Of a stretch of 64,000 nucleotides of DNA, positions 253-58,692 are shown in pieces. Under the pieces are notes generated by a model that saw only the letters and a list, made by a program, of their open reading frames with translations, was not told the origin of the DNA and did no database searches. Made by a program: the position numbers and the translations under genes. Positions within the stretch are counted from its first letter, which is position 1. Each line of letters starts with the position of its first letter. Source of the stretch: an uncultured bacterium (GTDB taxonomy: Bacteria > Acidobacteriota > HRBIN11 > JAKEFK01); assembly GCA_963777505.1 (NCBI GenBank), contig CAVZQN010000001.1, positions 1 through 64,000 on the forward strand, read 5' to 3'.

Positions 253-1221
253 ATGAAAATAGCGAAAAACATTTTAGAACTTGTAGGCAACACTCCGCTT
301 GTATATTTGAACAAGGTTAAGTCTTTAAAGGGCGCAAGAATTGCGGCCAAGCTTGAATCTGCAAATCCAGGCGGCTCAGTTAAAGATCGGATCGGTCTTT
401 GGATGGTTCAGGATGCTCTCCAACGTGGAGCACTGAAACCTGGAGGGACGATCATTGAGCCAACTTCTGGAAACACTGGCGTTGGTCTCGCTCTTGCGGC
501 GATTGTTCATGGCTGCAAAATGATTGCTGTAATGCCTGATAAAGTTCCTGTGGAAAAAATTCAACTGCTCGAAGCATATGGCGCTCAGTGCGTGATGTGT
601 CCAACTGATGTAGATCCAGAAGATCCTCGCTCGTACTATGAAACTTCCAAACGCTTAAATCGTGAAACGGAAAATTCATTTTTGCCGCAGCAGTACTACA
701 ACGAAAAAAATATGGATGCCCATTACAACTCAACAGGCCCTGAGATCTGGCGCGATACAGACGGAAAAATTTCCACTTTTGTTACTGGAGTCGGAACCGG
801 TGGAACTATCAGCGGAACCAGCAAATATTTAAAAGAACAAAATCCGAAAATACGCACCGTAGGTATTGATACTGTCGGTTCAGTCATCAAAGGTTTTTTC
901 GAAACCGGAAAAATCGAAGGGTATCATCCTTATCTTATTGATGGCATCGGTGAAGATTTTATTCCAGGGAATATTAAATTCGAATTCATTGATGAAGTGA
1001 TTCAAATACCCGATAAACTCGCATATCAAACCACGATGAAATTGGCGCGAGAAGAAGGGCTCTTTACCGGATCATCGGGCGGCGCGGCCGTTGCCGGCGC
1101 AATTCAGGCTGCTGATAAACTTCAGCCAGATGAATTAGTTGTTGTGCTACTCCCAGATACAGGCGCTCGCTATCTTTCTAAGCTAAATGACAAATGGCTG
1201 AGCGATAAAGGAATGCTTTAA
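253..1221 (+). CDS. PLP-dependent cysteine synthase / cystathionine beta-synthase family protein
   Basis: Motifs GNTPLV, NPGGSVKDR (PLP lysine), EPTSGNTG, GVGTGGT, PDTGARYLSK. PEDPRSYY is CBS-like. ATG 253 preferred over GTG 226. Confidence 0.93.
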   Translation: MKIAKNILELVGNTPLVYLNKVKSLKGARIAAKLESANPGGSVKDRIGLWMVQDALQRGALKPGGTIIEPTSGNTGVGLALAAIVHGCKMIAVMPDKVPVEKIQLLEAYGAQCVMCPTDVDPEDPRSYYETSKRLNRETENSFLPQQYYNEKNMDAHYNSTGPEIWRDTDGKISTFVTGVGTGGTISGTSKYLKEQNPKIRTVGIDTVGSVIKGFFETGKIEGYHPYLIDGIGEDFIPGNIKFEFIDEVIQIPDKLAYQTTMKLAREEGLFTGSSGGAAVAGAIQAADKLQPDELVVVLLPDTGARYLSKLNDKWLSDKGML

Positions 1222-1304
1222 CCGCAAGGCTCAGAGTTTTTGCTTTTTTGTTTTTGATCTGTTAGCATCTACGCCTTAGTTCTTTGAAAATAACTTAGAA
1301 CCCG

Positions 1305-1490
1305 CCTGCAATTGAGGGAAGCGTGGTAAAAAAATCCACCGCAGCCCCCGCTGCTGTATACGGGAACGAAATTCGGAACGTCGAATTTTCATTTAACGAT
1401 CGGCGCGAAACCACTGTCTGTTTTGTAAAAAACGGATGGGAAGGTCCGAAAAGTAGGATGATCCGTGAGCCAGAAAACCTGATTGCAAGT
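1305..1490 (+). ncRNA. Cobalamin (B12) riboswitch
   Basis: Conserved blocks AGGGAAGCGTGGTAAAAAATCCACCGCAGCCCCCGCTGCTGTA, CCACTG, GGGAAGGT and B12-box GAGCCAGAAAACCTG. P1-like pairing TGCAAT(1307)/ATTGCA(1482). Lies directly upstream of btuB. Confidence 0.92.
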
Positions 1491-1556
1491 GCAAGTTGCG
1501 ACCGATCTTCGGAGGGAAGATACCAGCGTCATGAAACGCATTGATGCGCTCCATGG

Positions 1557-1588
1557 CACCCGGCAGGATCGGCCGGGTTCCACTTTTT
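1557..1588 (+). terminator. Probable riboswitch expression-platform hairpin
   Basis: ACCCGGC-AGGATCG-GCCGGGT followed by TCCACTTTTT, just before the btuB RBS. Confidence 0.5.
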
Positions 1589-1604
1589 AAATGGAGAAAA
1601 AACA

Positions 1605-3437: not shown

Positions 3438-3461
3438 AACTGCAGAGACGCAAAGATTAAA

Positions 3462-4291: not shown

Positions 4292-4317
4292 GTAGGGGCG
4301 GGTCTAAGACCCGCCCT
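4292..4317. repeat. GTAG-family REP-like palindrome
   Basis: GTAGGGGCGGGTCTAAGACCCGCCCT; near-identical copies at 7333, 8854, 13019 and 26580. Confidence 0.85.
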
Positions 4318-7147: not shown

Positions 7148-7332
7148 GCAAAAAATTAAAGAGTTAAGATGGATACTCGATAGCTATGTGCGGGTCTTAT
7201 GGCGGTGATTGAACAACTTCCCTGCAGATATCGACCATACTCCCCCTCTCCTGTTGATTGAGTTTACTCCGGCAGAATGTACTATGCAAATTGGTAATGG
7301 CGTTTTCCCGTTGTGAGGAAGAAATTATCGAC

Positions 7333-7357
7333 GGGCGGGGTTAAGACCCGCCCCTAT
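7333..7357. repeat. GTAG-family REP-like palindrome (reverse orientation)
   Basis: GGGCGGGGTTAAGACCCGCCCCTAT immediately after the hydrolase stop. Confidence 0.8.
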
Positions 7358-7358
7358 T

Positions 7359-8833: not shown

Positions 8834-8853
8834 GCTCAGAATCTAAGGTATTA

Positions 8854-8882
8854 GTAGGGGCGGGCTTAAGACCCGTCCCTAC
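8854..8882. repeat. GTAG-family REP-like palindrome between convergent genes
   Basis: GTAGGGGCGGGCTTAAGACCCGTCCCTAC. Confidence 0.85.
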
Positions 8883-8883
8883 T

Positions 8884-10164: not shown

Positions 10165-10219
10165 AAGATTAAAAATTAAAGATCAAAAATAAAAAACTAA
10201 TTTTTGATTTTTTATTTTT
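10165..10219. repeat. 7-nt-period tandem repeat arranged as inverted arms
   Basis: AAGATTA AAAATTA AAGATCA AAAATAA ... TTTTTGA TTTTTTA TTTT. Confidence 0.55.
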
Positions 10220-13004
10220 CATTTTTTCTATTAACTATATGCTGCCAATTTAGAATGCCATTCCAAAGGAATCGATAATCCGAATAATTTAAATCGCGAT
10301 GCATCGGATTGAAATTGTAAACAAGGAAATGACCTTTGCCTGATGGGATGTCCAGAATCGCTGGACGTCCTTCCATTTGCTCAACCTTTTTTCCACCACC
10401 GCTGAGTATCATCGGTCCGGAGCTTGCGTCATCCGATTCAAATCGCCGTGTACCCCATTGCATAACCATGTGACGAAGATCCCATGGGCCATCTAAACAA
10501 GAGGTGCAATACGATGCTGTGAGCCATCGTTTAGGTGGATCATAAATTCCGTAGTTGGAACGGAAAGCCGATGTTTCAACCGGATAGCCATAACTAATAG
10601 GATGTTCTGGTTGAAGAAATTTTGCGCGGAGTTCAATGCCCGGCGTTGAAACACCATCTAAATACCGGCGGCGTACATTGCGTACAAGACCAGATTCTAA
10701 TACGAGTTGGGTACCAGTTCCGAGCGAGATAAACACTCCACCATCTTCCACGAATTGCTGAATGTTCGCGAGCCCTTTAAAGCCAATTCCTCCAGTGATG
10801 TCCTCCGATTCAGCAGGCGTGCCATGACTAGGTGTCTGCGGAGTCTTCTTATATGGCATGGGTCCCATGACATTTTGTAATCCATGAATTTGTTCCTGCA
10901 GTGCCATTAACGCTGTGCCGAAAATAATTACATCAACAGAATTCTTTAAATTTCCCGCTTTGATTTCCTCATCACGGATGTATGTATATGGGATCTTTCT
11001 TTGATCTAATGTGTAACGGATCCAACCCGCCGAATCAGTATCGGCCCATGGTACCCAAACGCCCAACCGCGCAGGAGGTGCATCATGTTGACCCACATCA
11101 GGAATTGAATTCACTGCATCAAAATCAATTCCAAGACCGCTTGAAGCATTTTTCAATGCATCACCCAAACCTGACTGATCTTTCACGATCCAGGATCCTG
11201 CCGGATATTTTGTATTTCCCGCGGAAAATTCTTTTTCTGCAATCGAAATCTTAAATCCTGAGAGTGCGTATCTCGCCGCGAGCAATCCCTCTTGACCACG
11301 ATCTGCAAGCACAAACGTTGTTCCCGAACCTGCAATCTTTCCAGACGTGTGAACATCTTCCGCAATCATCTGAAGTGGAACATCAAGAATCGCACGATCA
11401 TCAATCCGTATCGTTTGCAGTCCGTAATTTACTGGCAATGCCCATGACACGTCATCATAGGGTTGATACTCAGCATTTTCAGGAAACTCTTGTGGAAGCA
11501 ACAAATCAACCGCGTAATTTCTGTAAGGTTGATCTAGCCTGATCACATAATCGCCTGCGGAAAATTTGCCTTCTTTTGTTTGGAAATTTCGATCCGCTCG
11601 TTGTACTTCGATGTGCTGAATGCGCAGCCGATTAATCATGTGATCAACACTTGCTTTGTCTGCTTGATTGGCTGGAATTACAAATGCAAACGGATTTCCT
11701 GCTTTTCCTTTTTGCAAGGAGTTATTTCCTTTGCGATAAAAATTTCGCAACAACAGCTCTGCTTGCCTCGCCGAATAATCTAAAATTGATAACACCCCGG
11801 TCTGTGAATAATTCACACCATTGCGATGCGACCACACGAATTCACGAGGCGGGGGTGCAGGACGATACCATTCAACCGTTGTATCACCCGGGTCCGTGCT
11901 TCTTAAATATGTCCCCGGTGTTGTATTTCCCATGGTTTCATATCCCCGGCCTATTGAATTGTGATTCAATGCAATCGATTCGGTGAAAGGCTGACCATAT
12001 CCTTCACCAAAATTCCAGGTCCAAACGCCAGGCATATTAAATCCATTCATCTGACTCATTTCATGAAAGCTCATCTCCAAAAATTCACTGACTACGATTG
12101 CATCCATTCCAGGATTATATGGACCCGTACCATTCCATGTTTGAAGCAGCGCAAAAGCTTCATGAAGGTCATGAATTACGGTTGGGTGATAATCAAAAAA
12201 CATTTTGTGAACGGCACGTGTTGTTGAAAGAGCAAGCTGATGAGCGTCGCGATTTGCATCTACATAAACGTATTTTCCCCAGTAAGGTGGTGATTGCCGT
12301 GCCAATAATCCATAGTCAGTAATTCCCTTTCCTTTATGAAAGCGTTTAAACCAATCCACTAACTTTTCACGGCCATCGGGATTCGCAACAGGATTAATCA
12401 ACACAATGAGGTTTTTACGAATTTGCTGAATCATTGGAGTTTCGGAGACAGCAAGCCGATATGCCAGCTCAACGGCCATATCGGGACTTACACTTTCATC
12501 CGCATGGATCGCACAATTTATGAAATAAATCGGCCGCGCAGTTTGAATGATTTTTTCTGCCTGTTCTGGTGAAGTGCGTCTTGGGTCAGCCAGATCGGCA
12601 GTTGCTTTTTTTAGTGCAGACAAATTGCGGATGCCTTCTTCATCTGCAATAGCAACCAGGAGAATTTCACGATCTTCTTCAGTTTTCCCTATCACTTCAA
12701 CGTGAACTCGATCGGAAGTTCGATCCAGTTCTCTCATATAGGCAAAACTTTGCGTTGAGCTAACAAGTTCATCATTTGCACCAGCGATATGGCCAAGGAA
12801 GTCGGTTGGGGAGGGAACAGTTTTTGATTCAGGCACATATGAAACCCAGGAGCTCATGAATCTTGGTTCGGTCGTATCGCGGGCAATCGCTTCAACCGAT
12901 CCTGCTTCCGGAACATCGGGTGAGTAACGATCTTCCATCCATGCAGATGCGGTTAACAAAACAACGAACGATGTTGTTAGAAAACAGATTCGAAAAATAC
13001 TCAC
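10212..13004 (-). CDS. M14-family zinc carboxypeptidase-like exported protein
   Basis: IHADE (HxxE), NPDGRE, DANRD, HDLHE. Probable start GTG 13004 after GGGAGG; the upstream ORF extension is REP sequence. Confidence 0.85.
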   Translation of the reverse strand: MSIFRICFLTTSFVVLLTASAWMEDRYSPDVPEAGSVEAIARDTTEPRFMSSWVSYVPESKTVPSPTDFLGHIAGANDELVSSTQSFAYMRELDRTSDRVHVEVIGKTEEDREILLVAIADEEGIRNLSALKKATADLADPRRTSPEQAEKIIQTARPIYFINCAIHADESVSPDMAVELAYRLAVSETPMIQQIRKNLIVLINPVANPDGREKLVDWFKRFHKGKGITDYGLLARQSPPYWGKYVYVDANRDAHQLALSTTRAVHKMFFDYHPTVIHDLHEAFALLQTWNGTGPYNPGMDAIVVSEFLEMSFHEMSQMNGFNMPGVWTWNFGEGYGQPFTESIALNHNSIGRGYETMGNTTPGTYLRSTDPGDTTVEWYRPAPPPREFVWSHRNGVNYSQTGVLSILDYSARQAELLLRNFYRKGNNSLQKGKAGNPFAFVIPANQADKASVDHMINRLRIQHIEVQRADRNFQTKEGKFSAGDYVIRLDQPYRNYAVDLLLPQEFPENAEYQPYDDVSWALPVNYGLQTIRIDDRAILDVPLQMIAEDVHTSGKIAGSGTTFVLADRGQEGLLAARYALSGFKISIAEKEFSAGNTKYPAGSWIVKDQSGLGDALKNASSGLGIDFDAVNSIPDVGQHDAPPARLGVWVPWADTDSAGWIRYTLDQRKIPYTYIRDEEIKAGNLKNSVDVIIFGTALMALQEQIHGLQNVMGPMPYKKTPQTPSHGTPAESEDITGGIGFKGLANIQQFVEDGGVFISLGTGTQLVLESGLVRNVRRRYLDGVSTPGIELRAKFLQPEHPISYGYPVETSAFRSNYGIYDPPKRWLTASYCTSCLDGPWDLRHMVMQWGTRRFESDDASSGPMILSGGGKKVEQMEGRPAILDIPSGKGHFLVYNFNPMHRDLNYSDYRFLWNGILNWQHIVNRKNEK

Positions 13005-16962: not shown

Positions 16963-17007
16963 AACCGCAAAGACGCTGACATTTCCTCGCCGTCTTTGCG
17001 GTTTTTT
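16963..17007 (+). terminator. Terminator-like hairpin built from the 9-nt repeat family
   Basis: AACCGCAAAGACG...CGTCTTTGCGGTT followed by a T-run. Confidence 0.7.
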
Positions 17008-17008
17008 C

Positions 17009-17037: not shown

Positions 17038-17060
17038 TTACGATTGCAAGGAGAAGATTT

Positions 17061-17483: not shown

Positions 17484-17561
17484 TCCCTTCTACAGAAAAA
17501 TAAATGCCCTTATACCCCACCGCATCAATGGGGAGGCCCTTCTTTGTGCCTTTGTGGTTGA

Positions 17562-19903: not shown

Positions 19904-19926
19904 GACTCTGCGTTTTTGCGGTTAAT

Positions 19927-22386: not shown

Positions 22387-22433
22387 TTTAACTCGGCGTA
22401 CTCGGCGTTAAAAAAAACACATATACTGTTTTT

Positions 22434-28089: not shown

Positions 28090-28194
28090 ATAACGACTCC
28101 TTTTCCTTAGCATACACCAGTATTTGAAAAGTATCCGTCCAGTAGTATTGTGAACTCAGCGACTTTGTTGTGAATTCTTAACAGGAGGATTCAA

Positions 28195-30047: not shown

Positions 30048-30140
30048 TACGAATAACGAATAGCGATTTACTAATTACGAATTTAGCTCAACCACAAAGA
30101 CGCAAAGATAAAAGAGGGCCGACACAAACGCCGGCCCAAC
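30048..30140. repeat. Composite junction repeat (7-mer array, 9-mer pair and REP-like hairpin)
   Basis: ACGAATA ACGAATA GCGATTT ACTAATT ACGAATT; AACCACAAAGACGCAAAGA; GGGCCGACACAAACGCCGGCCC. Confidence 0.6.
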
Positions 30141-31457: not shown

Positions 31458-32651
31458 TCAGTTGCTTTTACCACAGAGACTTTGAGACTCTGCGGTAAAA
31501 AATTCCGGTTTTCGAAAACACAAAGACCGATCAAGGTCTTCGAGCAAATCTTCGATATCTTCAATTCCAACAGACAAGCGAATTACGCGTTCGTTTATAC
31601 CTGCTGCTTCACGTAATTCTGGCTTCATCGATGCATGACTCATCGTGCAAGGATGCTCAATCAATGATTCAACGCCACCCAGTGATTCTGCAAGAGTGAA
31701 AACGCTGACCGATCGCAGCACATGCGCGACTTCATCAATCCCGCCATTTACTTCAAACGAAACCATCCCTCCAAAACCATACTGTTGTCGCGTTGCCAAA
31801 TCGTGATGTGGATGACTTGTAAGGCCGGGATAATAAACTTTCCCTACAGAGTTATGGAATTCCAGGAATCTTGCGATGGCACGCGCATTGTGTTCATGTT
31901 CCTTCATGCGTGGAACGAGAGTTTTGATTCCGCGAAGCACAAGCCAGCAATCAAATGGCGAAGCGCCTTGACCTAAAGCATTGGTCAGCCATTGAATCCG
32001 TTCGGCAAGATCGACACGACTGCTCACGATTGCGCCGCCAACAACATCACTATGACCATTCAAATATTTTGTTGTGGAATGCACAACAATATCTGCGCCA
32101 AGTTCAATCGGACGTTGATTGTGAGGAGAAAGAAAGGTGTTATCCACGATTGAAAGCGCACCATGTTGATGCGCAATTTCAGACACCGCCTGAATGTCAA
32201 TGATATTGAGCAGCGGATTACTTGGAGTTTCAATCCAGATGGCTTTTGTTTGCGGCTTGATTGCTTTTGTGATTTCTTCCAAACGGCTCATATCGACATA
32301 TGTCGTTTCGATTCCAAATTGTTCTTTGTACGTTCGAAGCAGGCGGTCTGTTCCGCCGTAACAATCATGTGTGCAAATCACATGATCACCGCTTTTCAGC
32401 AGATGAAGCACAGTTGTGATCGCAGCCATTCCTGTTGCAACCGCCGAAGCTCCATAGCCGCCTTCCAGTGAGGCAAGATTTTCTTCCAATGCTTTTCGAG
32501 TGGGATTGTTTGTGCGTGAGTAATCGAAACCTTTCGTCACTCCAACATCTTCAAAACGAAATGTAGACGTTTGGTAAATCGGAGTGATTACGCTGTTATA
32601 GGCTGTGTCTTTGTCGACACCTGTGTGAATGGATTTAGTTTGAAAACGCAT
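31458..32651 (-). CDS. metB: Cystathionine gamma-synthase/lyase (Cys/Met PLP enzyme)
   Basis: PIYQTSTF, YSRTNNPT, ETPSNP, VDNTF, HSTTKYLNGHSD, AESLGGVESL. Start MRFQT at 32651, downstream of a SAM riboswitch. Confidence 0.88.
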   Translation of the reverse strand: MRFQTKSIHTGVDKDTAYNSVITPIYQTSTFRFEDVGVTKGFDYSRTNNPTRKALEENLASLEGGYGASAVATGMAAITTVLHLLKSGDHVICTHDCYGGTDRLLRTYKEQFGIETTYVDMSRLEEITKAIKPQTKAIWIETPSNPLLNIIDIQAVSEIAHQHGALSIVDNTFLSPHNQRPIELGADIVVHSTTKYLNGHSDVVGGAIVSSRVDLAERIQWLTNALGQGASPFDCWLVLRGIKTLVPRMKEHEHNARAIARFLEFHNSVGKVYYPGLTSHPHHDLATRQQYGFGGMVSFEVNGGIDEVAHVLRSVSVFTLAESLGGVESLIEHPCTMSHASMKPELREAAGINERVIRLSVGIEDIEDLLEDLDRSLCFRKPEFFTAESQSLCGKSN

Positions 32652-32886: not shown

Positions 32887-32916
32887 TTTATATAAAAATT
32901 CTGCGGACTCTGTCAA
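32887..32916 (-). promoter_or_regulatory. Sigma70-like promoter for the SAM riboswitch/metB transcript
   Basis: Minus strand TTGACA-GAGTCCGCAGAATTTT-TATATAAA. Confidence 0.6.
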
Positions 32917-32941
32917 GTCCTTTGCGCCTTTGTTGAATTTC

Positions 32942-35806: not shown

Positions 35807-35878
35807 TTGAAACTCCTTGACTTTCTTACAAAGATTTAATCATAAAGATCACTGAGCACAAAATTGTGAATAAGGCGC

Positions 35879-36249: not shown

Positions 36250-36293
36250 AACCGCAGAGACACAACGTTAAATAACCTGGAGTCTCTGCGGTT
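36250..36293. terminator. Hairpin between convergent genes, made from the 9-nt repeat family
   Basis: AACCGCAGAGAC...GTCTCTGCGGTT. Confidence 0.65.
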
Positions 36294-41691: not shown

Positions 41692-42081
41692 ATGACACAA
41701 TCAATACGAGCAGAAGAACCATTCGATCTGAATAAAGCAATGAGGCATGTGGACTACGATTCAAAGCTGTTTAAAGAAATGGCTTATCTATTTCAACAAC
41801 GATATCGTTTGCTTTTGGACACTGCACGAAAAGCGATTGATGCGAGAGATGTGAAAGCAATTGACTTTACGGCGCACGTGATTCAGGGAACAGTTGCAAA
41901 CTTTGCGGCTTATCGCGCACAGGAACTTGCCAGAAAATTGGAAGAAACTGTTAATGAAAATCAGATGGACAATCTGGATGGTTCCTATGCAGAGCTTGAA
42001 CAGGAAATCGAAAAGCTTGCTGATGCCATATCGAGATGTTTGAAAGAAGGATGGTATGAAAGTTCTGATTGCAGAAGATGA
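41692..42081 (+). CDS. Stand-alone Hpt (histidine phosphotransfer) protein
   Basis: AHVIQGTVANFAA (variant of AHxLKG) in an all-helical protein. Confidence 0.85.
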   Translation: MTQSIRAEEPFDLNKAMRHVDYDSKLFKEMAYLFQQRYRLLLDTARKAIDARDVKAIDFTAHVIQGTVANFAAYRAQELARKLEETVNENQMDNLDGSYAELEQEIEKLADAISRCLKEGWYESSDCRR

Positions 42082-42694: not shown

Positions 42695-42695
42695 C

Positions 42696-42838
42696 TTCCC
42701 CTCTTCTCCCTGCTCCTCCGCACCTCCGCACTGCCGCGTAGCTACAAGTTCCCTTCCCTTCTCCCTTTCTCCCCTGCTCCCCTGCTTTTGATCTTCGCCG
42801 CAATTTTGTAATTCCCACGAAACCTCGCACTCCCACAA
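42696..42838. repeat. Pyrimidine-rich ~8-nt-period tandem repeats
   Basis: CTCCTCCG CACCTCCG CAC; CTTCTCCC TTTCTCCC CTGCTCCC CTGC; TCCCACG...TCCCACA. Confidence 0.65.
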
Positions 42839-42848
42839 TCCGTGATAT

Positions 42849-45668: not shown

Positions 45669-45687
45669 AAGAAGATGAATCGATTGA

Positions 45688-45768
45688 ATAACCACGGAGT
45701 CACTGAGAACACGGAGATAACTAAGAAAAAATATTAAAACTCCGTGCCCTCCGTGACTCCGTGGTTAT
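45688..45768. repeat. 9-nt-period repeat element with inverted arms
   Basis: ATAACCACGGAG TCACTGAG AACACGGAG - AT-rich spacer - CTCCGTGCC CTCCGTGA CTCCGTGGTTAT. Confidence 0.85.
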
Positions 45769-45787
45769 GAGGATTGATGAGGCGATA

Positions 45788-47011
45788 ATGGAAACCAAGA
45801 TAGTAGTGCCTGCATTAGGTGAATCAGTTGTTGAAGCGACCATTGCACGATGGTTGAAAAAAGAAGGAGATCGAGTTCAACCTGGTGAATCACTTGTTGA
45901 ACTTGAAACGGATAAGGTAAATCTCGAAGTTGGTGCAGAGAAAGCAGGAGTGCTCGCGCGCATCGATAGAAAAGATGGAGATGATGTAAAGGTTGGCGAA
46001 ACTCTCGGTGTTTTAACCGAACTTCCTGCCTCTGCGGACTCTGCGGTAAAGCCCGCTCCCACGGAGTCATCAAGCAGTGTAAAACCTAACCTTCAGCCAC
46101 AACAACCAACAGCGTCCGCAGCAAAACCAAAGGCGACTCCCTCAGCCCGCCGATTTGCGCAAGAAGTTGGCGTCAGTCTTGAAGACATTTCAGGCACTGG
46201 ATCGGGAAATCAGATCACGCGCGAAGATATCCAATCCCACATTCAAAAAGAAAAAGCTCCGGCGACCCCGCAAACTCCACAGATTCAGCAGCCGAAAATC
46301 ATCCGCACAGGCACTCGCGAAGAAGAACGGATTAAGATGTCGCGACGGCGCAGAACGATTGCAAAACGACTCGTTGAAGCGCAACACAATGCCGCAATGC
46401 TTACAACGTATAACGAAATCGATATGTCTGCTGTAATGGAACTTCGCAAACGTCATAAAGAATCATTTCAAAAAAAGCATGGCGTTGGTCTTGGCATTGT
46501 TTCATTTTTCGTTAAGGCATCCATTGGAGCGTTGAAAGAATTTCCGCCAATCAACGCAGAACTGCAGGGCGATGAGGTGATTTTAAAGAAATACTATGAC
46601 ATCGGAATCGCAGTTGGCGCAGAAGAAGGACTTGTTGTTCCGGTGCTCAGGAACGCCGATCAACTTTCGTTTGCAGAGATTGAACAAACGATTAAGGATT
46701 TTATCCAAAAATCCAACGATGGAACTCTTTCATTGGACGATCTTCAGGGCGGCACTTTTACAATTACAAATGGCGGAGTGTTTGGCTCTTTGATGAGTAC
46801 GCCGATCTTAAATCCGCCCCAGGTTGCAATCCTGGGTCTGCACAAAATTGAGGAACGCCCGATTGCTGTAAACGGACAAGTTTTGATCCGTCCGATGATG
46901 TATGTTGCGTTAAGTTACGATCATCGAGTTGTTGACGGCCGTGAATCCGTACAATTTCTCGCGCGAATTAAACAACTTGTTGAAGATCCCGGCGCATTAT
47001 TACTCGAATGA
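45788..47011 (+). CDS. sucB: Dihydrolipoyllysine succinyltransferase E2
   Basis: Lipoyl motif ETDKV, E3-binding GTG..N.IT..D, catalytic DHRVVDG; start METKIVV after GAGG. Confidence 0.96.
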
Positions 47012-47036
47012 AACCTCTGCGTCTTTGCGGTTGTAA

Positions 47037-48134
47037 ATGAAAGCTTGGGTATACAGAAAAGATTCTGTTGATGATCGTGGGTTGCATTTATTTCTTGAAG
47101 ACATTCCAAAGCCTAAGCCTTCAGCCGGTCAGGTTTTAGTTCAGATCAAGAAAGTGTCGGTCTGCGGCACCGACGAATCTCTTTTTAAAGGCGATCTCAA
47201 ACGAGTTCCGGATGGGATCGTTCCTGGTCATGAGTTTTATGGCGAGATTGTAGAACTGGGCAGCGGAGTTGATGGATTAAAAGTCGGGCAAAAAATTGCA
47301 GGCGAATCGCATTATCATGTTCCTGGAACGGATGATCAAGGGATTATTGGACTCTGGGGCCCTGAAATTCACAAAGGCGAAAGCCTACCTGCATTAAACG
47401 GCGCTTATGCGGAATACTTAACAATCCCCGCTGAATGCGCGTACCCGGTACCTGATGAATATGTCGGAGATCATTTCTGGCCTTCACTTTTCGAGGCGAT
47501 CGGAAATGATTATTTCCTGATTAAGCATTCAACAAAAGAAAATAATATTGAAAAACTTGGAGTGTTCGGGTGTGGTCCGCACGGATTATTCGCACAAATC
47601 TTTGCAAAACATTTTGGAATAAAGAGAATTGCGGCATTCGAAATCGATGACTTTCGCAGAGACTTTGCGAAACAAATGGAAGCGGCGGATGGAGTTTTTA
47701 ATCCGCTAACGAACCTTCAAGAAACTGTACGTGATTTTACGAATGGAAATCTTTTTGATGCAACACTGGACATGGTTGGAAAACAAGGACAGGGATTTCA
47801 ATCGTGTTGCGATACAACGCGCGATGGCGGCACTGTTTATCTTTTTGGACTTTTTACGGATAAATTTGCGATTGCGGGAATTCAAGGAAACGAAATTATA
47901 TTCAAAATGAAAACGCTCGATTATGAGTATCAAAACAAACGGCTTCGTATCGAAGGAATTACCGGCCGTGAAGGGATCTGGCATGAATTAATCGAAACAG
48001 TTTGCCGCAACAGAGATTTGCAAGATCACTTGATGCGTCCAGTAAAAGTCATGGGCGCCCTCGATCAATTAGGTGACGATAATCGAAATCCAAAACCAGG
48101 CATCATGAAGCGTGCCTATTATCCATTTGCTTAG
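47037..48134 (+). CDS. MDR-family Zn dehydrogenase, divergent threonine 3-dehydrogenase-like
   Basis: VCGTD and GHE catalytic-Zn motifs, GCGPHG Rossmann motif, GITGR; directly upstream of kbl. Confidence 0.75.
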   Translation: MKAWVYRKDSVDDRGLHLFLEDIPKPKPSAGQVLVQIKKVSVCGTDESLFKGDLKRVPDGIVPGHEFYGEIVELGSGVDGLKVGQKIAGESHYHVPGTDDQGIIGLWGPEIHKGESLPALNGAYAEYLTIPAECAYPVPDEYVGDHFWPSLFEAIGNDYFLIKHSTKENNIEKLGVFGCGPHGLFAQIFAKHFGIKRIAAFEIDDFRRDFAKQMEAADGVFNPLTNLQETVRDFTNGNLFDATLDMVGKQGQGFQSCCDTTRDGGTVYLFGLFTDKFAIAGIQGNEIIFKMKTLDYEYQNKRLRIEGITGREGIWHELIETVCRNRDLQDHLMRPVKVMGALDQLGDDNRNPKPGIMKRAYYPFA

Positions 48135-48152
48135 CGCCTTTGCGGTGAAATT

Positions 48153-49340
48153 ATGTACGGAAAATTCAAAGAGCATCTAGAAAAAGAACTTGCGGGCATT
48201 CAAGAATCGGGAATGTTCAAAGAAGAACGTGTGATCAAATCTCCGCAGGGTTCAGGAATTCAGACCACAGCAGGTCCGAGTGTAAATTTTTGTGCAAACA
48301 ACTATCTTGGGCTTGCCAATCATCCTGAAATTGTTGAAGCCGCATCAAAAGGACTGCATGAACGCGGATTTGGAATGGCTTCGGTCCGGTTTATTTGCGG
48401 AACTCAGGACATCCACAAAGAACTTGAGAAAAAAATATCCGACTTTCTCGGAACTGACGATACCATTTTGTATAGTTCATGTTTTGACGCGAATGGCGGC
48501 CTATTCGAAACGTTACTTGGTCCTGAAGATGTAGTGATCAGCGATGCACTCAATCACGCAAGCATTATTGATGGAGTCCGTCTTTGTAAGGCAGAGAGGA
48601 AAGTATATCCACACGGCGATATGAATGTGTTGGAAGAAAAATTGAAAGAGAGTGCAAAATCGCGTTTCAAGTTAATCATTACGGATGGAGCATTCAGCAT
48701 GCATGGTGATCTTGCTCCGCTGCCTGAGATTTGCAATCTTGCGGATCAATATCAGTCACTTGTCGCAGTGGACGATTCGCATGCGACAGGATTTTTTGGA
48801 CCTACCGGCCGCGGTACACCAGAACATTTTGGAGTTCAGGATCGCGTTGACATCATTACAAGCACGATGGGTAAGACACTAGGTGGAGCCACCGGAGGAT
48901 TCACATCGGGACGCGCGGAAATTATTACAATGCTGCGACAACGGTCGAGGCCTTACCTCTTTTCAAATAGCGTTGCCCCTCCAATTGTATACGGAACAAT
49001 GAAAGCATTTGATCTCATTGAAAGACATCCCGAATACTTGAAGACGTTGCAAGAAAACACACGACACTTCAGAAAAGAAATGACGAATCGCGGTTTTCAA
49101 ATTCGTGAAGGTGTCCATCCGATCGTTCCGATCATGTTGGGAGATGAAAAACGGACTGTGCAAATGGCAAAAGAAATGAATACCCGCGGAATCTTTGTTG
49201 TCGGATTCAGTTTTCCCGTAGTGCCGCGCGGTGAGGCTCGAATCCGGGTTCAGATTTCAGCCTCTCACACAAAAGAACAACTCGATAGAGCTATCGGGAC
49301 ATTTGAAGAGGTCGGAAAACTAGTCGGAGTCATTCAATAA
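48153..49340 (+). CDS. kbl: Glycine C-acetyltransferase (2-amino-3-ketobutyrate CoA ligase)
   Basis: NFCANNYLGL, GMASVRFICGTQD, SCFDANGG, LNHASIIDG, RQRSRPYLFSN. Confidence 0.96.
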   Translation: MYGKFKEHLEKELAGIQESGMFKEERVIKSPQGSGIQTTAGPSVNFCANNYLGLANHPEIVEAASKGLHERGFGMASVRFICGTQDIHKELEKKISDFLGTDDTILYSSCFDANGGLFETLLGPEDVVISDALNHASIIDGVRLCKAERKVYPHGDMNVLEEKLKESAKSRFKLIITDGAFSMHGDLAPLPEICNLADQYQSLVAVDDSHATGFFGPTGRGTPEHFGVQDRVDIITSTMGKTLGGATGGFTSGRAEIITMLRQRSRPYLFSNSVAPPIVYGTMKAFDLIERHPEYLKTLQENTRHFRKEMTNRGFQIREGVHPIVPIMLGDEKRTVQMAKEMNTRGIFVVGFSFPVVPRGEARIRVQISASHTKEQLDRAIGTFEEVGKLVGVIQ

Positions 49341-49422
49341 GCCGAAATAACAAGACACTTCCGGCGTAAAAATATTCGAAAAGTTTAACAAACGGAACTT
49401 AAGTCTTGACGGCTTAACTAGT

Positions 49423-49683
49423 TTATTTCTTGAACCAATTCGCGTTCTTTTCTATATATTCTGTCCATTTTTCCGGAACATCTTCATTCGGGAATATTGC
49501 TTGAACGGGACAGGCCGGAACACATGCACCGCAGTCAATACATTCATCAGGATGAATATACAGCTGCGTCTCCGCGGCAAATGGTTCCTCGTCCTTGCGG
49601 GGGTGGATACAATCAACCGGACACACATCTACACATGCGGTATCTTTTGTTCCGATGCAAGGTTCAGCGATCGTGTATGCCAT
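49423..49683 (-). CDS. Ferredoxin (FdxA-like 7Fe/8Fe)
   Basis: EPCIGTKDTACVDVCPVDCI and ECIDCGACVPACPV. Confidence 0.95.
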   Translation of the reverse strand: MAYTIAEPCIGTKDTACVDVCPVDCIHPRKDEEPFAAETQLYIHPDECIDCGACVPACPVQAIFPNEDVPEKWTEYIEKNANWFKK

Positions 49684-49909
49684 GCACTTTCCTCCAATTC
49701 ATTTAAGAACCTAAATATATCGAATCTGCTGCCCGTCGTCAACGGATGTCGATAGCCTCTTCAGCCACCCGCTTTGCAATCTGCTAACATCACTTTTGAA
49801 AAGCAAAACGTAAATCAGGTATGATCGTTTGTGCTGGGAAGAAGCTTAGCAAAGCGTGCGGTCCATCGGCGCATTTCGGCGCGGCTGAATTCGAGCGTTC
49901 AGCAGCAAT

Positions 49910-50235
49910 ATGTTTGAAATAGTTGTTGAGGATATCTTTTCTATAACCGGGGAACTGTCTTTGCGGGTAAGATTCGATCGGGATCGATTTCGATTGGCGA
50001 TCCCGTTCTCTGCAAGACACCATCTACACAAATACAGACTCGAGTTATTGGCCTGGAGAAACTTGGAACACGCAAGCAGATTAGAACTGCCGAAGCCGGC
50101 GCAACTGTTGGCGTTCTTTGCAAATACATCGCGCATGAGTCTTTTAAGGATGCGTTTGAAGGGGAAGGCGAAAACGCTAGATTAGTCGGCGTAACGCTCA
50201 TACTTGGATCAAAGAAAAGTTGGTGGCAATTTTAA
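49910..50235 (+). CDS. Stand-alone EF-Tu domain II-like beta-barrel protein with one frameshift
   Basis: Manual reconstruction: MFEIVVEDIFSITG[fs, G-run 49949-49952]GTVFAGKIRSGSISIGDPV...VIGLEK...AEAGATVGVL...KKSWWQF*. Confidence 0.7.
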
Positions 50236-54646: not shown

Positions 54647-56834
54647 TAAAACTGATCGCCCAAATCAATTCATTGAAGAAGAGCGTTACGAGCTTTTTGA
54701 AAAACAGCGTTACCACTTCGAACTGAACCGCCGGAATTTCTTAAAATTCTTCGGCGGTGGAATCGTTCTGTTTGTTCCACTGAACCGATTGAACGCTCAG
54801 CAAGGCGAATCTGGTAGATCAGGTGATGATGACGTTCCGCAAGAAATTAGCGCATGGATCCATCTTGATGAGGACGGCTCCATCAAAGTCTTTACTGGAA
54901 AAACTGAAGTAGGCCAGAACATTCGCACGTCGCTTGCGCAGGCTGCTGCAGAGGAATTACACGTTCCTGTTTCTATGATCCGTATGGTCATGGCTGATAC
55001 GGCTCAGACACCATTTGATATGGGAACTTTTGGGAGTCTGTCAACGCCTTTAATGGCGCCACAACTCAGGAAGGCCGCTGCAGCTGCAAGAGAAATGTTG
55101 ATCGATCTTGCGGCACAACGATGGAACGTAAATCGGAATACAGTGCACATTGTGAATGCGCGTCTCACAGCCGACCATACAAAGGAATCGCTTAGTTTCG
55201 CTGATGTTATCAAAGGACAGAAACTAGCAAAGACGATTCCGAATGATCAGCCGACTCTTGCGCGAACGGAATGGACAATTGCAGGAACGTCGGTTCCAAA
55301 AGTTAATGGGAAGGATTTCGTAACCGGTAAACACAAATACACTTCGGACATGAAACTTCCTGGTATGTTATTTGCGAAGGTCGTTCGGCCTACAGCATTT
55401 GATGCGAAAGTCAGTTCTGCGGACATATCAGCAGCGGAAGCAATTCCATCAGTAAAAGTTGTGCGTGATGGTGACTTCATTGCGGTTGCTGCTCCTGATC
55501 ATGAAACTGCAATGCGCGCAGCCGAACAGATAAAAGTTGAATGGAATGCGCCGGCTCAACCATCGAATTCAGAATTGTTTGAGTTGCTGAAAAAGCCTTT
55601 ACCTCCCAACGAAAGCCAGGGCAGGCGACGCAGAGAGCCGGTGATTCAGGGTTCGATTGCGGATGGTCTTGCATCAGCTGAAAAGAAGCTTGAAGAAACA
55701 TACACGGTTGAATACATTGCGCACGCGCCGCTTGAACCGCGTGCAGCAGTGGCTGAATGGAAAGATGGCACATTGACTGTATGGACCGGCACACAGCGTC
55801 CTTTTGGAGTCAGAGGTGAGCTTGCAGAAGCGCTGAGTTTGCCGGAAGAAAAAATCCGAGTCATTGTACCGGATACTGGATCCGGTTATGGCGGAAAGCA
55901 TTCCGGTGAATGTGCAGTCGAGGCCGCAAGAATTGCGCGTGCTGCAGGTAAGCCGGTAAAACTTGTCTGGTCGCGCGAAGAAGAATTCACATGGGCATAC
56001 TTCCGCCCCGCTGGAGTGATTCAAATAAAAAGCGGCGTTAAGAATGACGGCATGATCACCGCATGGGAATTTCATAACTACAACTCGGGTTCATCGGCAA
56101 TTGAAAGTAAATATGACTTTCCCAATCAACACCTTCAATTTCATCCTAGCGACTCCCCGCTGCGTCAAGGATCGTATCGTGCGTTAGCAGCAACAGCCAA
56201 CCATTTTGCACGCGAATCACACATCGATGAACTTGCACATAGCATCAAGATGGATCCGCTTGAGTTTCGACTTAAAAACACAAAAGATGAAAGGCTCCGT
56301 GATGTACTTGAAGCAGCGGCAAAATCATTCGGTTGGAAAAATATGAATGCTGCAAAGGGTCATGGTATCGGTATCTCATGCGGTTTCGAAAAAGATGGTT
56401 ACGTCGCTACATGTGTAGAAATTGTGGCCGATTCAACGAAAGGCACAGTAAAAATTCTTCGAGTGGTAGAAGCATTTGATTGTGGACCGGTGGTCAATCC
56501 GAATCATTTAAAGAATCAGATTGAAGGCGCAATCGTGATGGGACTTGGCGGTGCACTATTTGAAGAAATTTTGTTTGAAAATGGCAAAATCCTGAATCCA
56601 CGCTTTTCGAATTATGCAGTACCGCGCTTCAGCGACTTGCCTCCTATTGAAGTTGTGTTGGTGGATCGTAAAGATATTCCTTCATCCGGTGCTGGTGAAA
56701 CTCCGATAGTCGGAATTGCTCCTGCAATCGGAAATGCCATCTTTGATGCTACAGGCATTCGCCTTAGATCGCTGCCGCTTATTCCGAATGGATTAGCATC
56801 AACATCTAGCTCAACCGCAAAGACGCCAAGATAG
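54639..56834 (+). CDS. Molybdopterin-binding oxidoreductase large subunit (IorB-like)
   Basis: Tat-like NRRNFLK, KTEVGQ, HAPLEP, GSGYGGK, NQIEG, GAGE; start MNSKT at 54639. Confidence 0.9.
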   Translation: MNSKTDRPNQFIEEERYELFEKQRYHFELNRRNFLKFFGGGIVLFVPLNRLNAQQGESGRSGDDDVPQEISAWIHLDEDGSIKVFTGKTEVGQNIRTSLAQAAAEELHVPVSMIRMVMADTAQTPFDMGTFGSLSTPLMAPQLRKAAAAAREMLIDLAAQRWNVNRNTVHIVNARLTADHTKESLSFADVIKGQKLAKTIPNDQPTLARTEWTIAGTSVPKVNGKDFVTGKHKYTSDMKLPGMLFAKVVRPTAFDAKVSSADISAAEAIPSVKVVRDGDFIAVAAPDHETAMRAAEQIKVEWNAPAQPSNSELFELLKKPLPPNESQGRRRREPVIQGSIADGLASAEKKLEETYTVEYIAHAPLEPRAAVAEWKDGTLTVWTGTQRPFGVRGELAEALSLPEEKIRVIVPDTGSGYGGKHSGECAVEAARIARAAGKPVKLVWSREEEFTWAYFRPAGVIQIKSGVKNDGMITAWEFHNYNSGSSAIESKYDFPNQHLQFHPSDSPLRQGSYRALAATANHFARESHIDELAHSIKMDPLEFRLKNTKDERLRDVLEAAAKSFGWKNMNAAKGHGIGISCGFEKDGYVATCVEIVADSTKGTVKILRVVEAFDCGPVVNPNHLKNQIEGAIVMGLGGALFEEILFENGKILNPRFSNYAVPRFSDLPPIEVVLVDRKDIPSSGAGETPIVGIAPAIGNAIFDATGIRLRSLPLIPNGLASTSSSTAKTPR

Positions 56835-56844
56835 AATCTTCTAG

Positions 56845-56877
56845 TCTTACAATTTGCAATCGTACAATCTGCAATTA
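56845..56877. repeat. 7-nt-period tandem repeat
   Basis: TACAATT TGCAATC GTACAATC TGCAATT, just after the 9-mer AACCGCAAAGACGCCAAGA at 56813. Confidence 0.55.
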
Positions 56878-56895
56878 CTTTCAAAGAGGTGCTAA

Positions 56896-57708
56896 ATGTT
56901 GACTCAAGCAGAAAAAGGAAAACTCTTCCGTTCTCTTCATAAAAGAAGCGACGCATTTATTATTCCAAATCCATGGGACATTGGAACTGCGCGCTTGTTA
57001 GCACATTTGGGATTTGAAGCGCTGCAACGACCAGTGCGGGGTATGCATTTTCTGCTAGGCCAGCAAGACAACTCGATAGACCGCGATCAAATGATGATGC
57101 ATGTCACAAACATTGTTTTAGCTACAGATTTACCTGTCAGCGCAGATCTCGAAAATGGATTCGGAGATAGTCCTGAAATTGTTGCACAAACGATCCGACT
57201 TGGTGCAGCCACTGGACTCGTTGGCGGCTCAATCGAAGATATGGCTAGCAATCACTCGATTTATGATCTCGAACTGGCGTCCGACCGTATCCGTGCAGCC
57301 GCTGACGTTGTGCGTACATTGCAATTTAATTTTACTTTAACTGCGCGTGCAGAAAATTATCTTGTTGGACGTCCTGATCTGAATGACACAATCAAACGCC
57401 TTCAAGCTTATCAGGAAGCCGGAGCAGATGTTTTGTATGCCCCAGGTTTGAAAAGCAAAGAAGAGATCGTTTCAGTTGTTAAATCAGTTGACCGTCCGAT
57501 CAATGTCGTCATGGGATTACAAGGCGTTCAGTTGAGCCTGAAAGAATTATCCGACATCGGGGTGAAGCGCATTAGCGTTGGGAGTTCACTCTCTCGCACA
57601 GCACTCGGCGCTTTTCTTCGCGCGGCAAATGAAATGAAGACTCATGGCACATTTGCTTACGCCGATGAAGCGATCAGCTTCCGCGAAATTAGTGCAATGT
57701 TTAATTAA
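56896..57708 (+). CDS. Isocitrate lyase/PEP mutase family protein
   Basis: PNPWD.GTARLL, PVSADLENGFG, GGSIED, ARAEN, AGADVLYAPG. The conserved ATTSAGYAFS is in a shifted frame (compensating indels ~57023-57055). Confidence 0.9.
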   Translation: MLTQAEKGKLFRSLHKRSDAFIIPNPWDIGTARLLAHLGFEALQRPVRGMHFLLGQQDNSIDRDQMMMHVTNIVLATDLPVSADLENGFGDSPEIVAQTIRLGAATGLVGGSIEDMASNHSIYDLELASDRIRAAADVVRTLQFNFTLTARAENYLVGRPDLNDTIKRLQAYQEAGADVLYAPGLKSKEEIVSVVKSVDRPINVVMGLQGVQLSLKELSDIGVKRISVGSSLSRTALGAFLRAANEMKTHGTFAYADEAISFREISAMFN

Positions 57709-57733
57709 GGAGTTATTTTTAATAAGTGTCGAC

Positions 57734-58594
57734 ATGCTTAACGCAATCGAGAGTATTCAAATAAATCAGAGCGCAAAGAAGTTTCAGATCGGGGATTTAT
57801 TGTTTGCGCAATTTGATTGTCACGCGCAAAATGAGCCACTTGGGCTTTGGGCTGAGACAGACCACCTGCTTCACGTACTCAATTCAAAACTGAGTTGGAA
57901 GACTCCTTCGGGGATCTGCTCAGTTGAAGCCGGGCAAAGTGTATTTTTTAGAAAAGGCGCGTATGTATCACTCGAACATCCTGACGGAGAAGCTTGTATC
58001 GAAGTATTTTTTATTCCGGACACTTTTGTGCGGGAAACAGTGATAGAACTTGCTGAGGATTTGCCGAGTTTAGCACATGCCATAGATTCGCAAGAAGCTG
58101 CAATTTATGTCAACCATGACGTTGGTTTGTCAGCATTCTTGCAAGCCATGACAATTTATTTTACAGCGGATGAAAAACCGCCGGTTGCGTTACTACGCTT
58201 GAAACTCAAAGAGCTTCTCACAGGGATTCTTGTAGGACAGAGCAATCCAATGCTTTCTTCGTATCTTCGCTCGCTGGCCGCAACCGATGCTCCTTCAATT
58301 CAGGCAATCATGGAAACGAATTTTGCTAACAACCTTTCTATTGATGACTTCGCTCGAATGAGTCACCGTAGTCTTTCCTCATTTAAACGGGAGTTTCGTA
58401 AGCATTTTCAAACATCTCCTGGAAGATGGTTACTTGAACGTCGATTGCAACATTCACACTCCCTGATGCAGACCACCGGGATGAGCGTTACTGAAATCAT
58501 GTTCGAATGTGGGTTCCAGGATCTTTCGCATTTCAGTAGAGCTTTCAAAAAGAAATTCGGTTGTCCGCCGAATGCAATATCGCGAACTCCATAG
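57734..58594 (+). CDS. AraC-family transcriptional regulator
   Basis: SLSSFKREF...SPGRWL..RRL, GFQDLSHFSRAFKKKFG. Confidence 0.92.
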   Translation: MLNAIESIQINQSAKKFQIGDLLFAQFDCHAQNEPLGLWAETDHLLHVLNSKLSWKTPSGICSVEAGQSVFFRKGAYVSLEHPDGEACIEVFFIPDTFVRETVIELAEDLPSLAHAIDSQEAAIYVNHDVGLSAFLQAMTIYFTADEKPPVALLRLKLKELLTGILVGQSNPMLSSYLRSLAATDAPSIQAIMETNFANNLSIDDFARMSHRSLSSFKREFRKHFQTSPGRWLLERRLQHSHSLMQTTGMSVTEIMFECGFQDLSHFSRAFKKKFGCPPNAISRTP

Positions 58595-58616
58595 TTTCAG
58601 CTCACCATAAATAATT

Positions 58617-58692
58617 AACCACGGAGTCACGGAGAACACGAGGCTCTAAAAAATACACAATCTTACCTCCGTGCTCTCCGTGACTCCGTGGT
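58617..58692. repeat. 9-nt-period repeat element with inverted arms (second copy)
   Basis: AACCACGGAG TCACGGAG AACACGAG - spacer - CTCCGTGCT CTCCGTGA CTCCGTGGT. Arms nearly identical to the 45688 copy; spacer unrelated. Confidence 0.85.

Follow-up and report, generated by a model that had tools for sequence, protein, structure and literature searches.

The window (the whole stretch of 64,000 nt analysed here) carries 18 distinct sites of a degenerate tandem repeat, hereafter arms: five empty pairs, which have no strand assigned, and 13 solo arms. Fifteen of these were listed in the original prediction; all 15 carry the motif at the positions listed, and 14 of them score at least 12 bits on an arm matrix, while the one at 32917 is visible by eye but scores below 9 bits. 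The list was real but incomplete, lacking 28155-28171, 35839-35856 and 46022-46047. The period, predicted to be about 9 nt, exists, but unit spacing is mixed 8/9 nt, with a period of 8 at 45739 and 58667. The sites had been placed at stop or start codons, which is largely right: 16 of the 18 lie in junction zones, which make up 15.1% of the window as defined from the gene calls made in this analysis (P=8e-12). The sites at 31470-31496 and 56814 fall within the last codons of ORFs and are thus not intergenic.

The two fullest copies have nearly identical arms around unrelated spacers, as predicted: both are exactly 75 bp long, their arms are identical at 23/26 and 25/26 positions and their spacers at 9/23, and both fold strongly as DNA (z -9 to -12). 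One is located in the sucA|sucB junction (45691..45765; the sucB ATG is at 45788) and consists of a three-unit left arm, a 23-nt AT-rich spacer, and a three-unit inverted right arm; the other (58618..58692) lies between the genes for an AraC-type regulator and a methyltransferase. The remaining pairs are shrunken: a 39-bp hairpin 3′ of gdhA, followed by a T run (16964..17002); a 27-bp pair in frame in the last codons of a cystathionine gamma-lyase/synthase ORF (31470..31496); and a 42-bp pair at the junction between a small basic ORF (forward strand) and a sulfatase-TPR gene (reverse strand) at 36251..36292. Arms within one element are more alike than arms of different elements (11.4 vs 9.05 of 12 nt; permutation P 0.033, n=5).

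Among the solo arms on the forward strand are left arms at 1221..1236 (16.0 bits), whose head overlaps the TAA of a cysteine synthase/CBS gene; 3439..3455 (12.2 bits), filling the 24-nt btuB|btuF gap; 30091..30107 (19.3 bits), after ggt and preceded by a 7-nt tandem array; and 56814..56830 (18.6 bits), which forms the last codons of an xdhA-like ORF. A weak forward-strand arm lies upstream of a hemL-like gene (35839..35856; 12.7 bits, a level at which about 2 chance matches are expected). Right arms on the reverse strand are found at 17542..17558 (20.8 bits; the DUF3501 ATG is 9 nt downstream), 22392..22409 (14.7 bits; a divergent variant before an acyltransferase gene), 28155..28171 (14.0 bits; before ggt), 46022..46047 (23.8 bits; in frame in the Ala/Pro-rich linker of SucB), 47015..47031 (20.4 bits; filling the gap between sucB and a tdh-like gene, with the ATG 5 nt on), and 48130..48146 (20.8 bits; overlapping the tdh-like stop, with the kbl ATG 6 nt on). 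Two more reverse-strand arms lie between the convergent peptidase M19 and lysA genes (19906..19922; 14.9 bits) and, in degenerate form, in the C-terminal extension of an APC transporter ORF (32901..32934), where the arm adjoins a different inverted-repeat family. Two genes bracketed by arms, those of rubrerythrin (16964-17558) and of the small basic ORF (35839-36292), were not accepted as captured cargo, since 18 sites spread over 54 junctions would probably bracket some genes by chance alone. A CRISPR- or TIGR-like array was also rejected: the window lacks the regular repeat-spacer layout of such arrays. True GTAG REPs are present in the window and form a family separate from the arms.

The motif is far more frequent than in shuffled DNA. 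The matrix, with counts taken solely from arms outside the window (training copies that were located with a pattern and with searches seeded by the window finding), gives 16 matches of at least 15 bits in the window versus 0.29 (maximum 2) in 100 dinucleotide shuffles of the entire window, not of intergenic DNA alone, an enrichment of about 55-fold; at 12 bits or more there are 22 matches versus 1.87. A match at 14510 is probably due to chance. Similarly, the window has 20 copies of ACCRCRRAG as a fixed 9-mer, where Markov simulations (30 per order) predict 3.3-3.8 and reach at most 7-9. At gathering score no Rfam 15 family matched an arm, the window yielding only two riboswitches, no match was found in E. 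coli, and the element had no real match in phage.

The original prediction took these copies for cargo-less or eroded remnants of gene cassettes, with a GxxExxY nuclease-like gene as candidate cargo, and found no such gene in the window; both points were borne out. Neither tblastn nor a six-frame profile search (E<=10, --max) found a GxxExxY gene or remnant in the window. Elsewhere, the same arms enclose one, in the layout left arm, GxxExxY gene, inverted right arm: at the radA|FAD-protein junction of Bacteroides finegoldii, the ade|mannose-1-phosphate guanylyltransferase junction of Bernardetia, the fabD|fabG junction of Sphingomonas, and in a Gemmatimonadota MAG (locus L015, whose gene was found by tblastn after a GxxExxY regex over the same loci had missed it). 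In Pseudoalteromonas chromids, matches were limited to neighbouring genes. Arm sequence varies by host, yet the ends pair: in four of eight intact loci they do so better than 300/300 shuffles, and in a fifth 2/300 shuffles did as well. The other three lack pairing ends, and 4/9 GxxExxY loci score zero on this arm matrix. Among 150 diverse GxxExxY homologues, the translated left arm is recognisable in 25/85 N-terminal extensions (2.9 on average and at most 9 in shuffles) and the right arm in 5/85 (shuffle mean 3.05), whereas 17/54 C-terminal extensions match the right arm (shuffle mean 3.4, max 8) and 2/54 the left (shuffle mean 1.8); arm-derived peptides thus occur only in the orientation expected. 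The repeats form the two ends of a cassette of ~450-480 bp built around a GxxExxY gene, and every copy in the window lacks that gene, being an empty pair of 75 bp, a shrunken hairpin, or a solo arm.

The cargo proteins exceed the curated cut-offs of TIGR04256 (7/7 tested) and PF13366 (6/6 tested), and the enclosed gene exceeds a cut-off for these two families solely, being no known transposase. This family (PDDEXK_3) is known solely as a protein; the accessible text of PMC3424549 gives its function as unknown and speaks of “multiple transfers, mixed clades.” It is large: one member has matches in 5,387 clusters (50% identity) at E<=1e-10 and in 18,364 when the threshold is E<=0.001. No solved structure related by sequence was found. 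The structural model (pLDDT 94.8; 38 for a single-sequence prediction) has as its best fold match Cas4 SSO0001 (4ic1; Z 8.0, rmsd 3.0, 97 aligned); other PD-(D/E)XK or restriction-like nucleases come next, and the R2 retrotransposon endonuclease domain matches weakly (Z 5.1). Residues E28, D68, E78, and K80 are kept in 88, 89, 87, and 88 of 89 sequences, so that GxxExxY is a predicted PD-(D/E)XK nuclease of ~125 aa with its E...D...ExK residues intact. It is found in 0/50,697 phage records and in 8/72,556 plasmid records, all typed non-mobilizable.

Orthologous junctions show the unit gained, lost, and flipped at conserved positions. The radA junction is filled in B. finegoldii, is a 13-nt gap in P. 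distasonis, and in P. massiliensis holds a different gene without arms; fabD|fabG is filled in S. parapaucimobilis and is a short armless gap in S. paeninsulae. For the filled Bernardetia junction no orthologue was found. The gmd|fcl junction carries an empty element in two Bacteroides and lacks it in P. massiliensis, where stop and start overlap. Between B. ovatus and B. finegoldii that element is inverted in place: 64/68 positions are identical when it is reversed and 52/68 as it stands (spacer, 10/12 vs 4/12), and the flanks are colinear (43/44 and 42/44). It has kept this position since the divergence of the two species (88% identity) and so cannot be called highly mobile there. In Gemmatirosa we observed 21-31 blastn places per ~1-Mb record, and a nested copy (locus L089, 1689-1849). 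No arm of at least 15 bits was present in any of the 61 other sucA|sucB junctions among the matches listed. The best full-length match in the SucB search of genome contigs was 64% among the matches listed, and tdh/kbl synteny was seen at none of the 80 distant SucB loci among them. Filled and empty alleles of one same junction were not found in the junctions compared. Since every comparison of presence and absence crosses species or genera, we infer the direction and timing of gain and loss. By eye, 25 paired elements show no consistent flush direct repeat as a target-site duplication, the T runs at 16964 being a possible exception.

We weighed several explanations of these data. Ordinary intrinsic terminators or chance matches have next to no probability and are refuted as a general account. 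The hairpin and T run after gdhA (16964-17002) fit it, and this may be the sole copy co-opted as a terminator, but in scans of 15000-49999 a hairpin with a U tract fits only this one among the arm copies, and the scan of 35000-49999 lists none of its arm sites. Moreover, sucA-sucB, within which transcription ought to continue, holds the best pair, and solo arms do not fold (3/3 tested, z -0.9 to +0.6), in agreement with the original prediction that single arms could not fold and that termination would not explain all copies; chance, for its part, faces the enrichment at 15 bits. A very low probability also attaches to the alternative offered with that prediction, that a single genome-wide regulator, binding DNA or RNA, recognises the arms. 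They do adjoin start and stop codons, and three ATGs have a right arm ending 5-9 nt ahead of them, in the position of a ribosome-binding site; a regulator-binding role has been proposed for the TAACTGA heptamers of Beggiatoaceae in the accessible part of PMC4679880. Such sites would not, however, be expected in both orientations within co-directional junctions, beside functionally unrelated genes, and within the SucB linker, nor would one gene family be expected to have these same arms on either side in different phyla, and the 0/61 result among the matches listed shows no conservation at orthologous junctions; the alternative is not supported.

Two further readings place the arms at the RNA level. 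Intervening sequences of rRNA are cut out by RNase III-type processing, and the arms could likewise form a stem around the GxxExxY gene, or around nothing, in mRNA, so that a cassette excised in this way is tolerated in operons; spread would be by horizontal transfer and host recombination, empty copies would be slippage deletions, inversion would be template switching, and the nuclease would have another job, e.g., as a toxin or in defence. The filled-cassette ends do pair as RNA, of the four filled cassettes whose neighbours are known, three lie within operons in the direction of the other genes (L015 is the exception), and GxxExxY is rare on plasmids and phages. We nevertheless regard this as unlikely, since it leaves unexplained why Gemmatirosa has dozens of near-identical empty units in each Mb and why copies are nested, and it accounts poorly for the same element in both orientations at one junction and for window copies that are mostly solo and unable to pair. 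It is improbable that a stem-closed RNA is instead the intermediate of retro-mobility, with GxxExxY nicking the target and a host reverse transcriptase copying in trans: insertions favour transcribed junctions and the R2 domain is among the fold matches, but that match is generic, no reverse transcriptase is annotated beside any annotated filled locus, and in-place inversion is unexplained.

The arms look like traces left by a type of mobile DNA not described before, and the best explanation, to which we give a probability of roughly 0.6, is a REPIN/MITE-like mobile system with the predicted GxxExxY nuclease as partner enzyme. We infer that this nuclease moves the element; filled copies would encode it in cis, and empty ones would depend on it in trans. 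In single-stranded or extruded DNA (on the lagging strand or during transcription), the two arms would pair into a stem of ~25 bp or more, and GxxExxY would recognise the arm units and cut the stem at its base, close to the TTC/TGA-ACC head. Since PD-(D/E)XK enzymes hydrolyse DNA without rejoining it, host repair and ligation would be needed to reinsert the excised piece, either elsewhere or in the same place reversed. Internal deletion would then yield empty pairs, and loss of one side solo arms, which would be decay products of pairs, if not in every case; a few hairpins would be co-opted as terminators. As units of 9 nt preserve reading frames, copies may persist in narrow junctions and flexible linkers. 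Several observations speak against the mobile reading: in-place inversion can also arise without any enzyme of the element, when replication switches template from one inverted repeat to the other; GxxExxY hardly occurs on phages and plasmids, unlike typical insertion sequences; solo arms outnumber pairs in the window (13 vs 5); some intact GxxExxY loci lack pairing ends (3/8) or go unscored by the matrix (4/9); and the spacers of the B. finegoldii pairs are unrelated 65-180-nt units without a GxxExxY remnant.

The REPIN/RAYT systems, as described in the accessible parts of PMC3116915, PMC5581495, and PMC3733652, resemble the arms in having a chromosomal gene flanked by repeats that are also scattered through intergenic space, with inverted doublets as the likely unit, singlets as decay products, and higher-order clusters. 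The arms differ from REPs in being a non-palindromic tandem of 8/9-nt units without a GTAG/CGTC tag, which pairs solely with its partner arm, and the enzyme is a predicted PD-(D/E)XK nuclease rather than an HUH/Y1 tyrosine transposase; doublets, dominant among REPINs, prevail in the B. finegoldii loci (11 pairs and 5 solo arms of at least 15 bits) but not in the window. MITEs and their parent insertion sequences, in the accessible parts of PMC2229807, PMC3184786, PMC11602168, and PMC3733652, are likewise short multi-copy non-coding units with terminal inverted repeats, have a longer form enclosing a gene, and insert beside and inside genes, whereas our element shows no consistent target-site duplication, encloses no known transposase gene, and has cargo from which plasmids and phages are nearly free. 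The TAACTGA heptamers (PMC4679880) and the cyanobacterial small dispersed repeats (compared by description only, from Elhai 2008 as cited in PMC2884548) are, in the parts of these sources accessible, also short tandem units by start and stop codons, patchy across phyla, but with another unit and period, mostly in direct arrays, and with no enclosed gene reported there. No description of the link between arms and GxxExxY was found in the accessible literature, although MITE or small-dispersed-repeat catalogues or supplements may hold one.

A repeat family at gene junctions in at least five phyla is thereby accounted for, and the large GxxExxY family gains a testable role and a defined candidate DNA substrate. 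If the nuclease is the mobiliser, transposition and inversion would proceed without any known transposase class, by one of the smallest such enzymes. A broader proposal, which we hold tentatively and at somewhat less than even odds, is a pan-bacterial class of mobile elements devoid of any known transposase. In it a minimal PD-(D/E)XK nuclease would recognise arms built of tandem 8/9-nt units and, helped by host repair, would invert, excise, and spread gene-less miniatures as well as its own cassette; the 7-nt and 8-nt arrays of the window would then have been left by related systems carrying different small genes. Arms mislead gene calling, as seen in the translated arms on many database GxxExxY proteins, and they reshape protein termini and linkers; at another locus (L019), the SucB linker likewise carries two arms.

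The window is a segment of a bacterial chromosome with 45% G+C, carrying housekeeping and transport genes, and the motif that the original prediction had placed at 15 sites is present at all 15; there are 20 copies of the string ACCRCRRAG where 3.3-3.8 would be expected. Each arm is purine-rich and consists of a head (TT[C/A] or TGA) leading into ACC R C R R AG and one or two more units; the 9-nt units expected from the proposed period of about 9 nt are there, but 8-nt units are mixed in. We trained a matrix on arms outside the window (21 distinct heads and 10 distinct second units), and it gave 16 matches of at least 15 bits (mean of 0.29, maximum 2, in 100 shuffles) and 22 of at least 12 bits (mean 1.87, maximum 7), well above shuffled DNA, in a test that is not wholly independent, as the training copies came from searches seeded by the window finding. 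Fourteen of the 15 sites reached at least 12 bits, the degenerate site at 32917 being the exception, and the scan added sites at 28171, 35839, and 46047. Junction zones, 15.1% of the window, contain 16 of the 18 distinct arm sites (P = 8e-12). There are 13 solo arms and five pairs (75, 75, 42, 39, and 27 bp), with the arms directed inward in every pair. The two 75-bp copies form a gap-free alignment and, as proposed, have near-identical arms (23/26 and 25/26) around unrelated spacers (9/23); they fold with z-scores of -9 to -12, while solos had been said to be unable to fold alone, and none of three tested did. No Rfam family covers the arms in the window. Arms also occur in frame inside the SucB linker, once in the window and twice in L019, a locus from another genome. 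The arm repeats are a real and pervasive feature.

The element at 45686-45770, used as a query against plasmid records, weakly matched 16 records, mostly by chance; the three inspected were all genuine, Gemmatirosa and Bacteroides finegoldii having full empty elements (arm pairs without a gene) and Anabaena a left arm. These copies, used as queries in turn, matched 21-31 places per ~1-Mb Gemmatirosa record, as well as 17 Bacteroides records and two Pseudoalteromonas records. In Chloroflexota, arms lie 3′ of sucB in two loci (2 of 79 sucB 3′ junctions among the matches listed). We also observed arms mixed with other repeats in a mosaic array resembling a BIME cluster in Pseudoalteromonas (L086, 3676-4300), and two empty elements bordering prophage-like regions in B. 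finegoldii (L002, 2980-3064; L103, 5260-5346), one with a duplicated arm head; the latter two are possibly attachment sites.

In B. finegoldii, a gene of the GxxExxY family (~125 aa) sits between radA and the gene for an FAD protein, with a 3-unit arm on each side: the left one directly follows the radA stop, and the right one, inverted, lies 8 nt upstream of the next ATG. With an additional gene in L015 (a Gemmatimonadota MAG), GxxExxY genes were found at nine loci among those listed. At L084, L015, L088, and L090, both arms are present and oriented as expected (those of L090 being a divergent variant with a low matrix score); the Gemmatirosa locus L089 has a frameshifted gene with a complete empty element on either side; an inverted pair of a related kind is present at L091; and L092-L094 are without arms of the window type. 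The pairing of the ends beat 300 of 300 shuffles at L084, L088, L090, and L015, and 298 of 300 at L091; at L092-L094 it was at chance level against 300 shuffles. In a larger sample, we scored over-called termini in the best 150 of 18,364 homologous clusters: of 85 N-terminal extensions of at least 10 aa, 25 resembled the left arm in translation (shuffle mean 2.9, maximum 9) and five the right arm (mean 3.05); of 54 C-terminal extensions, 17 resembled the right arm (mean 3.4, maximum 8) and two the left arm (mean 1.8). The window copies had been read as cargo-less or eroded remnants of such cassettes, with no GxxExxY gene in the window; we found neither gene nor remnant there, and the arm-bracketed genes elsewhere support and extend that reading. 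A second arm type (AATCCGTG/AATCTGTG units) accompanies GxGFLExVY-type genes in L091 and L094, which suggests that arms are specific to GxxExxY subfamilies; it also occurs solo in B. finegoldii (L084, 22305; L101, 5969, 35254, and 36288).

All seven GxxExxY proteins tested passed TIGR04256, and six of six passed PF13366 (PDDEXK_3). A structure model from an 89-sequence alignment (pLDDT 94.8) best matched Cas4 SSO0001 (Z 8.0, rmsd 3.0, 97 aligned; Foldseek E 4e-4), followed by other PD-(D/E)XK enzymes (Z 5-7); these matches of a predicted structure show fold, not substrate. E28, D68, E78, and K80 are conserved in 88, 89, 87, and 88 of the 89 sequences. The accessible text of PMC3424549 lists the family as of unknown function, with multiple transfers. 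Database homologs include several tandem two-domain GxxExxY proteins of 250-295 aa (P0002-P0014 and others).

Comparison of junctions points to gain, loss, and inversion. The radA junction, filled in B. finegoldii, is a 13-nt gap in Parabacteroides distasonis and, in Phocaeicola massiliensis, is occupied by an unrelated gene that lacks arms; fabD-fabG is filled in Sphingomonas parapaucimobilis and a short arm-less gap in S. paeninsulae. A 68-bp empty element at gmd-fcl is shared by B. ovatus and B. finegoldii and absent from P. massiliensis, in which the stop and start codons overlap. The two Bacteroides copies are inverted in place relative to each other (64/68 identities when reversed vs 52/68; spacer 10/12 vs 4/12), between colinear flanks (43/44 and 42/44). 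In Gemmatirosa, a full element is nested inside another arm pair. The left arm of an element co-varies with its right arm in the window (permutation P = 0.033) and, over 18 nt, in Gemmatirosa (P = 0.008) and B. finegoldii (P = 0.042); over 12 nt there was no co-variation in B. finegoldii. Against movement, no junction was found with both filled and empty alleles, all comparisons being cross-species; the gmd-fcl copy is old, and inversion between inverted repeats can arise by template switching. The GxxExxY gene is also rare on mobile replicons (the B. finegoldii seed matched 8 of 72,556 plasmid and none of 50,697 phage records), solos outnumber pairs in the window, and the pair spacers of B. 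finegoldii are unrelated native-looking DNA, one with an ordinary terminator. No target-site duplication recurred consistently across 25 paired elements. At sucA-sucB in 61 other, distant genomes, among the matches listed, no junction had arms of at least 15 bits; two arms scored 12-13 bits, and the median gap was 32 nt.

We read the arms as cassette ends and the window copies as gene-less forms of a unit that is gained, lost, and flipped (probability about 0.9). The whole model, which adds mobilization by the GxxExxY nuclease, a role that we infer, is somewhat favored: the nuclease would recognize arms paired in single-stranded or extruded DNA and cut at the foot of the stem, after which the host's repair machinery would put the excised piece back, reinserted or reversed; empty pairs would be moved in trans, and solos would be decay products. 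Excision of the cassette at the RNA level, with passive spread, is a distinctly less likely account; retro-mobility is improbable, and arms serving as regulator sites marginally more so. That the arms are terminators or chance is scarcely credible: the site at 16964-17002 fits a terminator, but no other arm site does in scans covering 15000-49999.

The arm system works in like manner to MITE/IS pairs and to REPIN/RAYT (accessible parts of PMC3116915, PMC5581495, and PMC3733652), where, in the first of these, doublets are the unit and singlets remnants. Unlike REPIN/RAYT, the arms have no palindromic GTAG/CGTC unit, and unlike both systems they come with no HUH or other known transposase; the arm system fails membership of either. 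TAACTGA heptamers, as described in the accessible part of PMC4679880, have a similar position and a different unit. A search of open-access articles found nothing linking GxxExxY/PF13366 with flanking repeats, and an existing catalogue may list the arm motif without connecting it to the gene. We rate the layout, an autonomous gene with miniature derivatives, as known, and its enzyme as belonging to a class not known in this role; that the system is a new class of mobile element is a tentative proposal, somewhat short of even odds.

Other repeats share the window. GTAG-tagged REP-like palindromes form a separate family (4292-4316, 7329-7358, 8852-8883, and 26580-26614), and a motif search found no RAYT-like ORF in the window. 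Four 7-nt-period tandem arrays lie at 10165-10227, 30048-30083, 56846-56880, and 62169-62290, two being inverted pairs around a spacer, laid out as in the 9-nt element. Such arrays flank four-helix-bundle genes, and they are possibly a sister system; a motif search found ORFs of that type in L020, L040, and L089, with short tandem-like flanks in two of the three. Pyrimidine-rich 8-nt-period repeats (CCCTGCTC type) lie upstream of sucA (42695-42800), and a similar array follows the four-helix-bundle-like ORF in L089. Among the junctions listed from distant genomes (L004-L083), 7-nt arrays, GTAG REPs, and other palindromes occur at sucA-sucB and 3′ of sucB in many. At 32943-33098, degenerate arms surround an inserted inverted pair, 24 bp long and perfect, that contains internal palindromes; through it runs an APC transporter ORF, whose C-terminus is ~90 codons longer and extends into the region of a SAM riboswitch (32727-32857, reverse strand), which precedes a cystathionine lyase gene.

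A cobalamin riboswitch (1293-1500, forward strand) precedes btuB. Two genes are broken up, one for a hemL-like aminotransferase into three pieces (34447-35806) and one for a Ser/Thr kinase-TPR protein into several (59725-62140); these frameshifts may be sequencing errors. A strong sigma-70-like promoter (35879-35906) precedes a small basic ORF (~35980-36240, forward strand; ~82 aa) that is unannotated and carries an internal duplication, and a small ferredoxin-like ORF of less than 90 aa lies at ~49443-49710 (reverse strand).
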